A DNA stretch of 64,000 bases, from the sequence record NC_029091.1. One strand, written 5' to 3'. The DNA is from Escherichia phage APCEc01. Positions 3,976-17,138 of the stretch are shown one piece after another (positions within the stretch are counted from its first letter, which is position 1; each line of letters opens with the position of its first letter). The notes under the pieces are model-generated. The model was not told where the DNA came from and searched no databases. It saw only the letters and a program-made list of their open reading frames with translations. The translations under genes were made by a program, and so were the position numbers.

Positions 3976-4263
3976 ATGAAATCCTATAAAGAATTTATAT
4001 CACCTTTTGCTAACGTTTCTACTCTGACCGAAGCAACCCTTACTTCCGAAGTTATTAAAGCAAATAAAGGACGTGAGGGTAAACCAATGATTAGCCTGGT
4101 TGACGGCGAAGAAGTAAAAGGTACTGTTTACTTAGGGGATGGATGGTCTGCTAAGAAAGACGGCGCTACTATTGTTATCTCTCCGGCCGAAGAGACTGCA
4201 CTGTTTAAAGCTAAGCATATTTCTGTAGCTCAGCTTAAAATTATTGCAAAAACTCTTCTGTAA
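3976..4263 (+). CDS. ipI: internal head protein (IPI-like) with capsid targeting sequence
   Basis: 95 aa; N-terminus MKSYKEFISPF resembles the MKTYQEFIAE targeting sequence of T4 internal proteins; next to 57B as T4 ipI. Confidence 0.55.
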   Translation: MKSYKEFISPFANVSTLTEATLTSEVIKANKGREGKPMISLVDGEEVKGTVYLGDGWSAKKDGATIVISPAEETALFKAKHISVAQLKIIAKTLL

Positions 4264-4266
4264 GTA

Positions 4267-4306
4267 GTTTACATGCTGATAGGACTATGTTATAGTAGTC
4301 CTATCA
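4267..4306 (+). promoter_or_regulatory. early promoter (PeSL type)
   Basis: GTTTAC at 4267, TATAGT at 4291; inverted repeat TAGGACTA / TAGTCCTA flanks the -10; followed by CTATCAAAACAA box. Confidence 0.6.
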
Positions 4307-4333
4307 AAACAAATGAGTAAATGGAGAAATAAA

Positions 4334-4519
4334 ATGAAACGCGCTGAACTGATTCGTAATGTTGCTGTAGTAATTGCTTCAATGGCTTTTAGTTTTTCGA
4401 TGTTTGTAGGATTCATTTGCGGACTACTGACAACAACTGAAAATTCTATCTCATTGGTAGTAGCATTTCTAATCGGTTTAATCGCTATCGTTATGGATAA
4501 AATTGCAAAAGGTGAGTAA
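4334..4519 (+). CDS. small membrane protein
   Basis: ATG 4334 after GGAG; 61 aa with hydrophobic core; track start 4313 is an upstream extension. Confidence 0.5.
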   Translation: MKRAELIRNVAVVIASMAFSFSMFVGFICGLLTTTENSISLVVAFLIGLIAIVMDKIAKGE

Positions 4520-4520
4520 A

Positions 4521-4883
4521 ATGAAATATCACGTATATGCGGATTTTGAAGCAAATCCTTCTAAAGACCCTGATTGTCGTTTGATACGCAAACCATTTGA
4601 TTCAGCAGCTCAAGCATGGACTTGGATTAAATCTAAATCGCCTGGTTATATGTTCTTTGAAGTAGTCGATGACAATGGTACACTGCATCCAGAACCTACA
4701 GAAACTATTAATTTCCTTCTGTTTGCTGGTTACGACTGTTATCCTCTTGGTGGTATTGATGATCTTGTTGCTACAGGAAAAACTGTTGAGGCTCTTCGCG
4801 AAATTTATAAAAACGCAGAAGAAAATTTTGACTGGTACCAGATTGTCAGTGCACATACTTTTGAAGTGGTGGAACACTCATGA
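4521..4883 (+). CDS. hypothetical protein
   Basis: ATG 4521 (MKYHVYADFEA) 1 nt after previous stop, GGTGAG upstream; 120 aa. Confidence 0.5.
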   Translation: MKYHVYADFEANPSKDPDCRLIRKPFDSAAQAWTWIKSKSPGYMFFEVVDDNGTLHPEPTETINFLLFAGYDCYPLGGIDDLVATGKTVEALREIYKNAEENFDWYQIVSAHTFEVVEHS

Positions 4884-5170
4884 TTCTTTACGCTAAAGTA
4901 AAATCTGTCGAGAACGGATATGAAAGCGATCAACGTGCAGCTAAAGCACTAGTCGATGACTATGGTATTTTGACTAATTTTGAAGTTGAAAAGGTTTATA
5001 TCGACCGTTCATCTTCGCAAGTTAAATTACTCTGTGAAGATGATAAATTTAACACAGTTAACTTTGATTTCTTTATTGAAACAGAAAAAGGCCCTCTTGA
5101 ATATGATATTTTCAAGAATCCTTTGAAATTACGTTGCATTGAATATAATTACATTAATATGGTACGGTGA
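4880..5170 (+). CDS. hypothetical protein
   Basis: 96 aa; ATGA overlap with upstream gene. Confidence 0.5.
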   Translation: MILYAKVKSVENGYESDQRAAKALVDDYGILTNFEVEKVYIDRSSSQVKLLCEDDKFNTVNFDFFIETEKGPLEYDIFKNPLKLRCIEYNYINMVR

Positions 5171-5174
5171 GTAA

Positions 5175-5690
5175 ATGAATATTTGTTTAGGCAGTACAAT
5201 TCCTAAGGGTTACGTAATTGATGTCACTACTTGGGAAAATGACGGCGACAACTATAAAACTAAAACGTTGTTTGGTGTAGAAGAGCATGAGCTCCAACAG
5301 TTTAAATATCTCTTGAAGAAATTTAAGAGTCGTCATTCCAGCACTAAAGCTGAACGTTACTGTGGTAATACACCATTCAGTGATTGCTCGCTTTTAATCT
5401 ATGAATACTTGGTTGAAGGACTGTTCTCAGACCAGCTTTATCCAGAATTCATTAAAAAGGTCTTTGGTATTGAAGTCGACCTTGGTAATAAATCTGAAGA
5501 AGACGAATCGCGTGTATTTGACCTGTTCCATGAGAATGGATATTTAGTATCAGAAGGTCTCATTGATATTCTTGGCCATGCTTCTGAATATTATGATTAT
5601 GATTTCTTGCGTGTAGTTGAATGTGTTGAATTTGCTTATATTGAAGAAGAAATCGTTTTGCCGACTGTTAAAATGATTGATTTGCTTTAA
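5175..5690 (+). CDS. hypothetical protein
   Basis: 171 aa acidic protein; GGTGAG RBS. Confidence 0.5.
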   Translation: MNICLGSTIPKGYVIDVTTWENDGDNYKTKTLFGVEEHELQQFKYLLKKFKSRHSSTKAERYCGNTPFSDCSLLIYEYLVEGLFSDQLYPEFIKKVFGIEVDLGNKSEEDESRVFDLFHENGYLVSEGLIDILGHASEYYDYDFLRVVECVEFAYIEEEIVLPTVKMIDLL

Positions 5691-5769
5691 GAATTATGTG
5701 TTATTATTAATTCATACCCTCTATTACCAAAGGTGCTCTAAAGTGCCTTTCATAATAGAAAGTTATTTA

Positions 5770-5843
5770 GGCCCTGTAGCTCAATGGTTAGCAGCAGTCC
5801 CCTCATAAGGGAAAGGTTACCAGTTCGAATCTGGTCTGGGTCA
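5770..5843 (+). tRNA. tRNA with anticodon CAU (Met or Ile2/AUA-reading type)
   Basis: Hand fold: acceptor GGCCCTG/CTGGGTC (one U-U mismatch), T arm ACCAG-TTCGAAT-CTGGT, anticodon loop CTCATAA; no encoded CCA. Confidence 0.6.
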
Positions 5844-5849
5844 TATATT

Positions 5850-5926
5850 CGAGGCATAGCTCAATTGTATAGAGCAACGGACTTCTAATCCGTAGGTTGA
5901 AGGTTAGAATCCTTCTGTCTCGACCA
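5850..5926 (+). tRNA. tRNA-Arg (anticodon UCU)
   Basis: Hand fold: acceptor CGAGGCA/TGTCTCG, D stem GCTC/GAGC, anticodon stem ACGGA/TCCGT with loop CTTCTAA, T arm GAAGG-TTAGAAT-CCTTC, encoded CCA. Confidence 0.8.
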
Positions 5927-15387: not shown

Positions 15388-15665
15388 AAACATATAGTGA
15401 ATTTTTATCAGAATCTATTCTTAACGAAGCTACTGACACATTTGCAACTAAGCTAGGTGCAGCTTTGGTTGAAGCTGAAAGTCTATTAGCACGTATTTCT
15501 GAACTTGCTAGTAAGATAGATACTCGCAAATTTGAACGTACCAGCGATATCGCTAAGCTTGAAGCCTTGTTGCGTATGTGCGATAAACCAGAAGAAATCG
15601 CTAAGAACGGCTCGCTGATGAAACAACGTCTTGAAAAATATATTTCAGGCGCTTCAGAAAAATAG
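15384..15665 (+). CDS. internal-protein-like protein with capsid targeting sequence
   Basis: ATG 15384 overlapping e stop; N-terminus [11 protein letters not shown]; 93 aa. Confidence 0.5.
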
Positions 15666-15666
15666 T

Positions 15667-15700
15667 GTTTACTTCCTCCAAGGGTTTTGATACTATACAT
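15667..15700 (+). promoter_or_regulatory. early promoter
   Basis: GTTTAC at 15667, TACTAT at 15691. Confidence 0.5.
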
Positions 15701-15723
15701 TCATCAACTACTTGGAGGAAATT

Positions 15724-16137
15724 ATGACTCGTATCAATTTAACACTTGTTTCTGAACTGTCCGACCAACATCTTATGGCTGAGTATCGTGAATTACCACG
15801 CGTATTTGGTGCAGTCCGTAAACATGTTCAAAACGGTAAACGTGTAAAGGATTTTAAAATCTCTCCAACATTTATCTTAGGCACAGGTCACGTAACATTC
15901 TTTTACGACAAACTCGAATTTTTACGTTTACGTCAAATCGAGCTAATCGCTGAATGCTTGAAACGTGGTTTCAAAATCAAGGACACGACTGTCCAGGATA
16001 TTTCCGACATTCCTGTAGAATTTCGTAATAATTACGTCCCGTCCGAAGCGTCCATTGCGATAAGTCAAGCACGCTTAGATGAAAAAATTGCTCAACGTCC
16101 GACTTGGTACAAATACTATGGTAAATCAATTTACTAA
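15724..16137 (+). CDS. denV: endonuclease V (pyrimidine dimer DNA glycosylase, DenV)
   Basis: ATG 15724 after GGAGG; [34 protein letters not shown]... matches T4 DenV; 137 aa. Confidence 0.9.
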
Positions 16138-16144
16138 GGAAAAA

Positions 16145-16405
16145 ATGAAAATGTATCAAGAATTTATCATTGAAGTAGATGCCAAAGACCCCAAATTTAA
16201 AGTTAAAGCTTTCATTGGTGATGCGGAAGACTTTGGCTCATTAAAACGTAATGGGTATTCTTTCTTGGGTGGCGATGGTAAAGAAATCAACACCTATGCA
16301 AAACGTAGTGAAATTGCTTATGTTGTAGTAAGTCCTAAAGTAGATGTTGACGATATTGGATACGATTTTAACAACTTCGGAATTATTTCTGGCGGTAAAG
16401 CTTAA
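16145..16405 (+). CDS. internal-protein-like protein with capsid targeting sequence
   Basis: ATG 16145; N-terminus MKMYQEFIIEV; 86 aa. Track start 16079 lies inside denV. Confidence 0.5.
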   Translation: MKMYQEFIIEVDAKDPKFKVKAFIGDAEDFGSLKRNGYSFLGGDGKEINTYAKRSEIAYVVVSPKVDVDDIGYDFNNFGIISGGKA

Positions 16406-16408
16406 ATT

Positions 16409-16445
16409 GTTTACGCTTAAGTATTAATATGGTATAATTACTCTA
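16409..16445 (+). promoter_or_regulatory. early promoter
   Basis: GTTTAC at 16409, TATAAT at 16434, CTCTATCAAAACAAACAAGG box. Confidence 0.5.
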
Positions 16446-16468
16446 TCAAAACAAACAAGGAAACAAAA

Positions 16469-16783
16469 ATGAAAACGTATAAAGAATTTATTGCAGAATC
16501 CGCCAACCAACGCGTTGAAGGTGGTTATATTTGGATTGAACAAGTTGAGCCACCGAGCCGCACTTCTACAGGTAAATGGAAAATTACTGTTGACGGTCCT
16601 GGCGGTAAACGTAGGACTCTTAAAGAAATTAACGGGTACTATGAAGAAGCTCTTTCGGATGCAGGAACTTACATGATGCAAATCATGATTAAAAACCCTG
16701 AAAACCGTTTTGCAGCTAAAGTCTTCCGTCGTATTGGTAATAAACTTTATGATGCATACTCTAAAAACTTCCCTAAAGAATAA
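16469..16783 (+). CDS. internal-protein-like protein with capsid targeting sequence
   Basis: N-terminus MKTYKEFIAES; 104 aa. Confidence 0.55.
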   Translation: MKTYKEFIAESANQRVEGGYIWIEQVEPPSRTSTGKWKITVDGPGGKRRTLKEINGYYEEALSDAGTYMMQIMIKNPENRFAAKVFRRIGNKLYDAYSKNFPKE

Positions 16784-16808
16784 CATAAATTAAAACAATA
16801 GGAACAAA

Positions 16809-17138
16809 ATGAAAACATATCAGGAGTTTATCACTGAAGTTACATTATCTGCGGAACAGAAAGCTGCTATCGAAGAAGGTAAAAATCCCAAAGTAACATA
16901 CAAAGTAAATAGTAAAGGCGTTTTTGATGGCTTGGTTCAAGACCCTGAATTGAAAAAAGCTCTTTCTAAAACTAATGCGTACTTTGCTCCTAAATTTAAC
17001 ACAGCCGGTGTACTTATTGGATTGGACGTATTCAACTCTAAAGGTGTTCTATCTAATGCCTTTGGTTATGCCGCTAACAAAATTACCAAAGCAGCATGGG
17101 AATCCAATACCAAACAAGCTCAAAAGCCTAGAGTATAA
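16809..17138 (+). CDS. internal-protein-like protein with capsid targeting sequence
   Basis: N-terminus MKTYQEFITEV; 109 aa. Confidence 0.55.
   Translation: MKTYQEFITEVTLSAEQKAAIEEGKNPKVTYKVNSKGVFDGLVQDPELKKALSKTNAYFAPKFNTAGVLIGLDVFNSKGVLSNAFGYAANKITKAAWESNTKQAQKPRV

Follow-up and report, generated by a model that had tools for sequence, protein, structure and literature searches.

The 64,000-nucleotide stretch of Escherichia phage APCEc01 analyzed here (NC_029091.1; "the window" below means this whole stretch) comes from a Mosigvirus, an RB69-like T-even phage, and contains six small open reading frames (ORFs) that begin with the capsid targeting sequence (CTS) of T-even internal proteins (Ips). 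Very probably these six are the Ip complement of the phage: proteins that are packaged into the prohead by way of the CTS, trimmed by the protease gp21, injected with the DNA, and active against restriction, and whose genes are exchanged between related phages as cassettes. The grounds for this are a motif, cleavage sites, family assignments, gene positions, and cassette junctions that can be observed directly, together with the protease gene of a near-identical genome. As an account of the six-gene set it is correct, ordinary, and already known. Public phage records hold proteins 96 to 100% identical to all six, and the diversity of CTS-tagged Ips of T-even phages has reportedly been on record since Repoila et al. 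(1994). The sole point not met with in the literature or in the annotations inspected, of modest novelty, is the CTS of the family to which ORF 6674 belongs. The six genes are as follows (a slash marks the predicted gp21 cut).

3976 to 4263, + strand: ipI orthologue, 95 aa; leader MKSYKEFISPFANVSTLTE; PF11634, phrog_4363, PDB 2JUB
6674 to 7138, + strand: CTS-bearing basic protein, 154 aa; leader MKSYAEFLTE/Q; phrog_2280, E=1.4e-53
15384 to 15665, + strand: Ip5-like internal protein, 93 aa; phrog_3499 "internal head protein," E=2.1e-46
16145 to 16405, + strand: Ip7-like internal protein, 86 aa; leader MKMYQEFIIE/V; phrog_2667 "internal head protein," E=1.2e-20
16469 to 16783, + strand: Ip10, 104 aa; leader MKTYKEFIAE/S; phrog_3966
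16809 to 17138, + strand: diverged tandem paralogue of Ip10, 109 aa; leader MKTYQEFITE/V; phrog_3966, E=2.8e-32

These are the ORFs that an earlier, sequence-only reading had singled out, and a scan of all six frames of the window with the pattern M[KR].[YF].[ED][FWY][ILVM] returns exactly the same six. Chance does not produce such a number: 200 mononucleotide shuffles of the window gave a mean of 0.035 matches and a maximum of 1, and shuffling the N-terminal residues of the 134 ORFs on the + strand that reach 60 aa or more gave a mean of 0.006. When 1,419 candidate ORF starts were scored with a position-weight matrix, the six scored 32 to 37 bits and the runner-up 6.6; the matrix was built with the six themselves included, and only the gap in score is informative. 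The literal motif under which the ORFs had been announced, MK[ST]Y[KQ]EF[IL]..E, is found in 16469 and 16809, while the other four depart from it (by Ala5, Ser5, Met3, or Pro10 and a Glu shifted to position 19), so that "variants of" this motif is the right wording. All six starts are ATG codons behind a purine-rich (GGA/AGG), Shine-Dalgarno (SD)-like stretch. A program-made ORF list opens two of the ORFs further upstream, at TTG 15369 and ATG 16079; the credible starts are the CTS-type ATGs at 15384, which overlaps the stop of the lysozyme gene e as ATGA, and at 16145, which lies 7 nt past the denV stop behind TAAGGAAAAA. Compared with each other by BLASTP, the six proteins are unrelated beyond their first 10 or so residues, save for a weak similarity between 16469 and 16809.

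What is so short a leader good for? In T4, ten N-terminal residues of IPIII are enough for encapsidation (PMC9026906), and the 10-residue CTS alone packages foreign proteins (PMC9026906, PMC3012670). Residues 4 and 7 of the CTS govern targeting, residues 8 and 10 govern processing, and gp21 cuts after L/I-x-E (PMC9026906). In the window, Met-Lys at the start, Tyr4, Phe7, and Ile/Leu8 are present in all six ORFs and Glu10 in five. A gp21-type site is likewise present in each: LTE10 (6674), LSE10 and LNE15 (15384), IIE10 (16145), IAE10 (16469), ITE10 (16809), and LTE19 (3976). ORF 3976 is the one with Pro10, and its site, LTE19/ATL, matches ITE19/ATL of T4 IPI and the first residues of the solved IPI* chain. 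The protease site that had been expected behind the conserved Glu thus follows every leader, at residues 8 to 10, or at 17 to 19 in Ip1. The proposal that the leader is a CTS of the T4 Ip type holds up as well, given the families of five of the six, the IPI orthology of ORF 3976, and the retention of the published determinants.

Genes for gp21 (E=1.4e-74 to phrog_207, head maturation protease), gp22, gp67, and gp68 are present in Escherichia phage vB_EcoM_SCS57, whose genome is 99.2% identical to the window in this region. Its gp21 keeps LIE-9 and its gp23 keeps FLTE/AEIGG, which we take to be the T4 gp23 maturation site. The route proposed for the six proteins has four steps. (i) Each would be synthesized with an N-terminal CTS of about 10 residues, MK-x-Y-x-E-F-[I/L]-x-E. 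(ii) The CTS would dock the protein on the gp22 scaffolding core during prohead assembly. (iii) gp21 would cut after L/I-x-E, at residue 10 in four of the proteins, 15 in the Ip5-like protein, and 19 in Ip1, leaving a mostly basic mature protein of 8 to 16 kDa in the head among the DNA. (iv) The mature proteins would enter the host with the DNA and act before phage gene expression.

Two RB69 proteins show what can become of the leader. RB69 p127 (RB69 6923-7204) reads MKTYMNFYQNLSLNE; its leader is MKTYMNFYQN, and it has lost the CTS while keeping LNE/ATD. In RB69 p123 (RB69 5450-5779), IAA replaces ITE at positions 8 to 10, a change that by the T4 rules should block processing and leave targeting intact.

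Families and positions of the six genes

Five of the six ORFs belong to families that PHROGs or record annotations already label as internal head or virion proteins, and five lie within the two recognized ip loci, between 57B and the tRNAs and in the e-denV-vs.8 region; the exception to the latter is ORF 6674. The gene closest to a characterized protein is ORF 3976. It matches Pfam PF11634 (IPI_T4) at E=1.4e-50 and 169.6 bits (cut-off 25) over residues 20 to 95, the residues to which the 76-aa chain of PDB 2JUB (IPI*) aligns at E=5.8e-42; the Pfam search of the other five ORFs gave no match. The predicted gp21 cut after LTE19 would release a 76-aa mature IPI*. Identity to T4 IPI is 87%, and the mature part differs from IPI* at 4 residues and is identical to that of RB69 IPI. 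On these alignments, ORF 3976 is a true IPI orthologue, of the GmrSD inhibitor family; T4 IPI (PDB 2JUB) inhibits GmrSD, the type IV restriction enzyme found in E. coli CT596. By analogy, the target of Ip1 would be a GmrSD-family type IV enzyme, and RB69 IPI is reported to protect RB69 from GmrSD (PMC6024577). T4 IPI and ORF 3976 have in common their length of 95 aa, a 19-residue propeptide ending in [IL]TE/ATL, and their place after 57B. They differ in that the T4 leader has Phe4 and Thr8, whereas that of ORF 3976, with Tyr4 and Ile8, is nearer the canonical CTS, and in that T4 DNA is glucosylated and the DNA of this phage arabinosylated. The 4 substitutions relative to T4 IPI* may shift which GmrSD variants are blocked, a point that PMC6024577 does not settle. 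In the RB69 record, ipI is called 4 codons too early (RB69 18450-18749).

The four ORFs of the e-denV-vs.8 locus, 15384, 16145, 16469, and 16809, belong with the polymorphic T-even families Ip4 to Ip10 and beyond and are orthologues of RB69 p127, p125, p124, and p123, respectively; their assignment to Ip5, Ip7, and Ip10 follows the annotation in RB32, PP01, VR25, and SP18. ORF 15384 shares phrog_3499 with PP01 Ip5, and its VR25 counterpart is annotated ip5. Its conserved cut is probably LNE15/ATD, the site retained in RB69 p127 despite the degenerate leader and in VR25 with Val at position 10. ORF 16145 is in the family of RB69 p156 and RB15 Ip7, its RB69 orthologue p125 is annotated "internal head protein," and ORF 16145 occurs in 216 phage records; in the SCS57 record the orthologue is called from codon 3 (SCS57 14252-14506). 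ORF 16469 has 96% identity to the protein that PP01 annotates as "Ip10 internal head protein," and the name Ip10 is also used in Shigella phage SP18. An AlphaFold2 model of ORF 16469, made from a 5-sequence alignment, reached a pLDDT of 48 and is unusable, so weak sequence hints of CsgH and filamin Ig-like domains are unsupported. ORF 16809 is 32% identical to 16469 across 72 aa. It is present in 89 phage records, in which the matches listed are called "hypothetical protein," save one that is unannotated and one with an evidently shifted annotation. The latter, a 35%-identical relative in phage ESCO10 called "RNA polymerase ADP-ribosylase," was disregarded. Product names in that record (OM386655.1) appear to be shifted or scrambled, with 100-aa ORFs of the ip region called "RNA polymerase ADP-ribosylase," "DNA ligase," and "baseplate."

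ORF 6674 is the least documented member of the set. Its family, phrog_2280, is listed in PHROGs as of "unknown function." By tblastn it is found in 510 phage records, from Mosigvirus and Tequatrovirus, and the 15 matches listed are all "hypothetical protein" or unannotated. In the record of RB32, the only note on the orthologue concerns a flanking 34-bp imperfect direct repeat. The gene lies downstream of tRNA-Arg and of rnaD and rnaC, a third position outside the two recognized ip loci. Diverged relatives, 47 to 60% identical, nonetheless keep CTS-like leaders (MLKFNEFLAE, MLEYSEFLKE, and MKFKEFLIE), and no description of a CTS on phrog_2280 was found in the literature or in the annotations inspected. 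Together with the unannotated ORF 16809, ORF 6674 is probably a further internal protein. We lean slightly toward a broader statement: that phrog_2280 is an unrecognized Ip family of about 510 T-even genomes, its CTS sometimes masked by a miscalled start, occupying a third ip locus as a hairpin-flanked cassette and bringing, with 16809, the candidate injected inhibitors in the window to five, the targets of which could be GmrSD-like enzymes acting on arabinosylated DNA. One such masking start is that of PP01_137, a member of the ORF 6674 family that begins 30 codons too early (PP01 7479-8042). In some public records, as in the RB69 and SCS57 cases above, a miscalled start codon hides or distorts the CTS.

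To what else is ORF 6674 related? In an AlphaFold2 model with a moderate pLDDT of 74, a Lys/Pro/Ala linker connects two helical domains. Foldseek of this model against the PDB gave non-significant helical matches only (best E=0.34), and therefore no functional inference can be drawn from it. Deep searches for relatives returned just 8 or 9 clusters, all phage-like, and no bacterial homologue. Homology to T4 IpII was suggested by a BLASTP match over 43 aa (E=0.001, mostly leader) and a weak phrog_7857 match; it was rejected when a profile comparison with mature IpII, made without the leader, gave a probability of 3%. RB69 p149, which occupies the same post-tRNA locus, is in phrog_2280 too, with BLASTP similarity to ORF 6674 limited to the leader. 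The two proteins would thus be at most remote relatives, and the window holds a different phrog_2280 member at that place. Some relatives of ORF 6674 are chimeric: one combines the N-terminal domain of the family with an unrelated C terminus, and others carry its conserved segments behind unrelated N termini. Shuffling of domains within the family could account for them, as could artifacts of assembly.

How many Ips does such a phage normally carry? The same kind of CTS scan, applied to the interval from gene 1 to vs.8 in relatives, gives 3 for T4, as had been supposed, and 7 for RB69 (p127 counted), 6 for Shf125875, and 5 for STML-198. RB32 has at least 5, four by scan plus an annotated Ip5 that the pattern misses. 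VR25 has five by scan (a sixth match is a false positive), and seven of its coding sequences are annotated as internal head or virion proteins. The "expanded repertoire" of the sequence-only reading is therefore an expansion relative to the three of T4 and to nothing else: given the 7 of RB69, the 6 of Shf125875, and the seven annotated coding sequences of VR25, six Ips are the norm for the genus Mosigvirus.

Promoters, repeats, and exchange of ip genes

Many other Mosigvirus genomes are about 96 to 97% identical to the window region (Shf125875 is 96% identical overall), and the DNA flanking the ip genes is 93 to 98% identical to that of RB69. Despite this high flanking identity, the Ip content of the window, RB69, and Shf125875 differs. 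Of the RB69 set that was compared (p123, p124, p125, p127, p149, p155, and p156), the window lacks p156 (Ip7), and window positions 3944 to 3998 align to both of the RB69 leaders involved; the junction lies in a duplicated promoter/SD/leader segment. In Shf125875, Ip7 adjoins Ip1, and a T4-type IpII stands at the place of the window's Ip10 and its paralogue. The elements that border the genes in the window are the following.

3907 to 3962, + strand: T4-type early-promoter cassette, TTTACA-17-TACTAT, directly upstream of ipI; a sister copy at 4262 to 4317 downstream brackets ipI
16404 to 16459, + strand: T4-type early-promoter cassette, TTTACG-17-TATAAT, upstream of ip10 (16469)
6602 to 6633, + strand: terminator-like hairpin on the upstream side of the 6674 cassette, one of two flanking copies of an imperfect 32-nt direct repeat, found by repeat and terminator scans
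7145 to 7176, + strand: hairpin repeat, downstream copy, 81% identity, flanking the 6674 cassette

The promoter module occurs six times in the window, in copies of about 56 nt at 3907, 4262, 7973, 11072, 12636, and 16404, with the consensus TTTAC[AG]-17-TA..AT and the form AAAnAGTTTACA-17-TATAGT...CCTATCAAAACAAA. These modules match the PeSL promoter consensus of T-even phages, TTTACW-N17-TAYWAT (PMC4122927). The ip genes would then be exchangeable cassettes, bounded by early-promoter or hairpin elements and by conserved leader-coding DNA, and recombination at these bounding elements would add, remove, and swap them between related phages. PeSL elements have been proposed to drive cassette shuffling in hyperplastic regions of T4-like phages (PMC4122927). 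What the window shares with the PeSL shuffling of Arbiol (2010) and Comeau (2014) is the promoter modules and hairpins that flank ip genes and stand at indel junctions (PMC4122927); in the window, the leader-coding sequence itself also acts as a repeat at the junction. Shuffling of ip genes has already been described, reportedly by Repoila et al. in 1994, and in the PeSL papers (PMC4122927), and the leader-coding repeat at the ip locus was noted by Repoila et al. as well, according to the account given in PMC4122927.

Since the leader-coding DNA forms direct repeats with the SD and promoter upstream of it, and recombination junctions lie within these repeats, the shared N terminus could be a by-product of shuffling at the DNA level, in which a module of promoter, ribosome-binding site, and first codons is passed around with new genes without serving every one of the six as a packaging signal, and some of the proteins are ordinary cytoplasmic early proteins. 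Early-type promoters on two of the genes fit such a scheme, as do the RB69 orthologues p127 and p123, whose damaged leaders imply that leader damage is tolerated. What speaks against it is the pattern of conservation. Across the six genes, Ile/Leu8 is encoded in five different ways, and codons 3, 5, and 9 vary freely, while Tyr4, Glu6, and Phe7 are invariant. The residues kept are those found to be important by experiment (4, 7, 8, and 10; PMC9026906), and a leader of this length is, as mentioned, sufficient by itself to package foreign proteins in T4. Because the residues are retained through different codons and also in homologues only 47 to 60% identical, selection acts on the leader as a peptide, beyond the DNA alone. 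An origin of the shared N terminus as a mere by-product is thus highly improbable.

Proposed roles in the head and in the infected cell

The sequence-only reading had placed the six in a class that includes antirestriction factors, and this link is stronger than it knew. Work published in 2025 showed that T4 Ip1, Ip2, and Ip3 each inhibit a distinct GmrSD type IV enzyme, with no cross-protection, and its authors expect the same role for the remaining Ips (PMC12373910). IPII and IPIII (Ip2 and Ip3) act on GmrSD-ECOR21/BrxU and GmrSD-ECOR17. They resemble the ORFs of the window in their near-identical 10-residue CTS, their IAE/ITE site, their small basic mature proteins, and their e-denV-vs.8 locus, but beyond the leader there is no sequence relationship. 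T4 Ip2, T4 Ip3, and T2 IpIV have no counterpart in the window, and the PHROG families of Ip2 and Ip3 (7857 and 5341) are absent from it. As each of T4 Ip1 to Ip3 blocks one GmrSD variant, each further Ip family becomes a candidate inhibitor of another defense enzyme. The five non-Ip1 proteins would most likely inhibit other modification-dependent GmrSD-like nucleases or other first-line defenses; their packaging, cleavage, injection, and antirestriction activity are what we infer from the T4 work.

Which nucleases might these be? Mosigvirus DNA carries arabinosyl-5-hydroxycytosine rather than glucosyl-hydroxymethylcytosine (PMC13326640, PMC13390438). The GmrSD-family enzyme BrxU cuts this arabinosylated DNA (PMC13390438), and therefore a selective pressure exists. 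A different modification may also attract different enzymes, and the five proteins could be injected antidefense factors against systems other than GmrSD, such as abortive-infection or sensor systems or other nucleases that act on arabinosylated DNA. No homologue of Ip2 or Ip3, the known GmrSD inhibitors, is encoded in the window, and the sequences point to no particular target, which leaves room for this idea. It is nevertheless doubtful: just three Ips have known targets, each of them a GmrSD variant, the authors predict the same for other ip loci (PMC12373910), and GmrSD-family enzymes do cut Mosigvirus DNA (PMC13390438, PMC6024577).

Must the packaged proteins be inhibitors at all? They might serve mainly structural or physical ends, neutralizing DNA charge or assisting head assembly or DNA ejection. 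The predicted mature proteins, of 76 to 144 residues and 8 to 16 kDa, are mostly basic and all Lys-rich like the T4 Ips; four of the six have an isoelectric point (pI) of 9.0 to 9.7, the range of the T4 Ips, and a fifth has 8.1. A part in head morphogenesis has been suggested for T4 IPIII, polyheads build up in T4 IPIII- and IP0 mutants, and the Ips make contact with DNA phosphates through their Lys residues (PMC9026906, PMC3012670). With no Ip3 homologue in the window, ORF 6674 (16 kDa and basic) could fill that role. A chiefly structural function is still unlikely. Ip families are unrelated in sequence, putatively dispensable, and swapped between near-identical genomes, all of which fits an arms race; the three T4 Ips all have specific GmrSD targets (PMC12373910); and one of the six mature proteins is acidic.

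Several points weigh against taking all six as packaged antirestriction proteins. The acidic protein just mentioned, mature 16145, has a pI of 5.2, slightly acidic and unlike the T4 Ips. ORF 6674 lies outside both ip loci and is named an Ip in no inspected record, and the window itself does not include gp21 or the scaffold genes. The exact late promoter (TATAAATA) is found directly upstream of none of the six genes; versions with one mismatch precede 6674 and e/15384, a two-mismatch CATAAATT precedes 16809, and two of the genes, ipI and ip10, have early-type promoters. In T4, the ip genes are expressed both early and late. With no exact late promoter present, late supply to the prohead would depend on read-through or on such early-plus-late expression. 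For the targets of the five non-Ip1 ORFs, searches of Pfam, PDB sequences, NCBIfam, and folds gave no functional hint: no NCBIfam model matched any of the six, and PDB sequences gave these five no significant match. Finally, the searchable literature yielded no virion proteomics or N-terminal sequencing of any Mosigvirus Ip, and a literature search for T-even virion proteomics with Ips gave no usable result, so that packaging and processing of the six are likewise what we infer. A literature search on the names Ip8 to Ip12 returned unrelated papers only.

Loading of proteins into the prohead by a removable propeptide is also known from the giant phages SPN3US and phiKZ, in which a protease of the same superfamily removes the propeptide and the proteins are ejected into the host (PMC5694885, PMC9026906). 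Neither the motifs nor the proteins are related to those of the window, and the giant-phage proteins far exceed them in size and number; the likeness is one of mechanism and not of homology. Injected Ips act before phage gene expression and so form a front line in the phage-host contest, where they partly set host range, a matter of consequence for phage therapy. The window adds nothing conceptually new to this picture. It offers five candidate Ips from a phage whose DNA is arabinosylated, and it draws attention to a widespread family (ORF 6674, phrog_2280) that the inspected annotations miss.

Neighboring genes

Gene order is as in RB69 and T4, on the strand opposite to the T4 map.

first part: gene 1, 57A, 57B, and ipI, then trna.4 to trna.2, tRNA-Met, and tRNA-Arg
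second part: a variable block, e.6 to e.2, nudE, lysozyme e, an ip gene, denV, three ip genes, and vs.8

Rfam matches consist of two tRNAs only. At 92% identity, window positions 6284 to 6633 correspond to rnaD and rnaC, stable RNAs of T4 (species 2 and 1), and to the terminator downstream of them; no Rfam family covers this region, and the program-made ORF list places spurious ORFs on it. Three small ORFs at 10278-10583, 10593-10865, and 10875-11072 (101, 90, and 65 aa) are tandem paralogues with the conserved tail G(A/G)WV(S/A)SS..C, and the repeat extends into the ribosome site of the next gene; they are equivalents of RB69 ORF139c, ORF137c, and ORF136c. A family of predicted membrane proteins resembling e.3 and e.2 is encoded at 9922-10281, 12699-13004, and 13686-14183, its members having in common a C-terminal F[IV][KT]ECR after hydrophobic segments.

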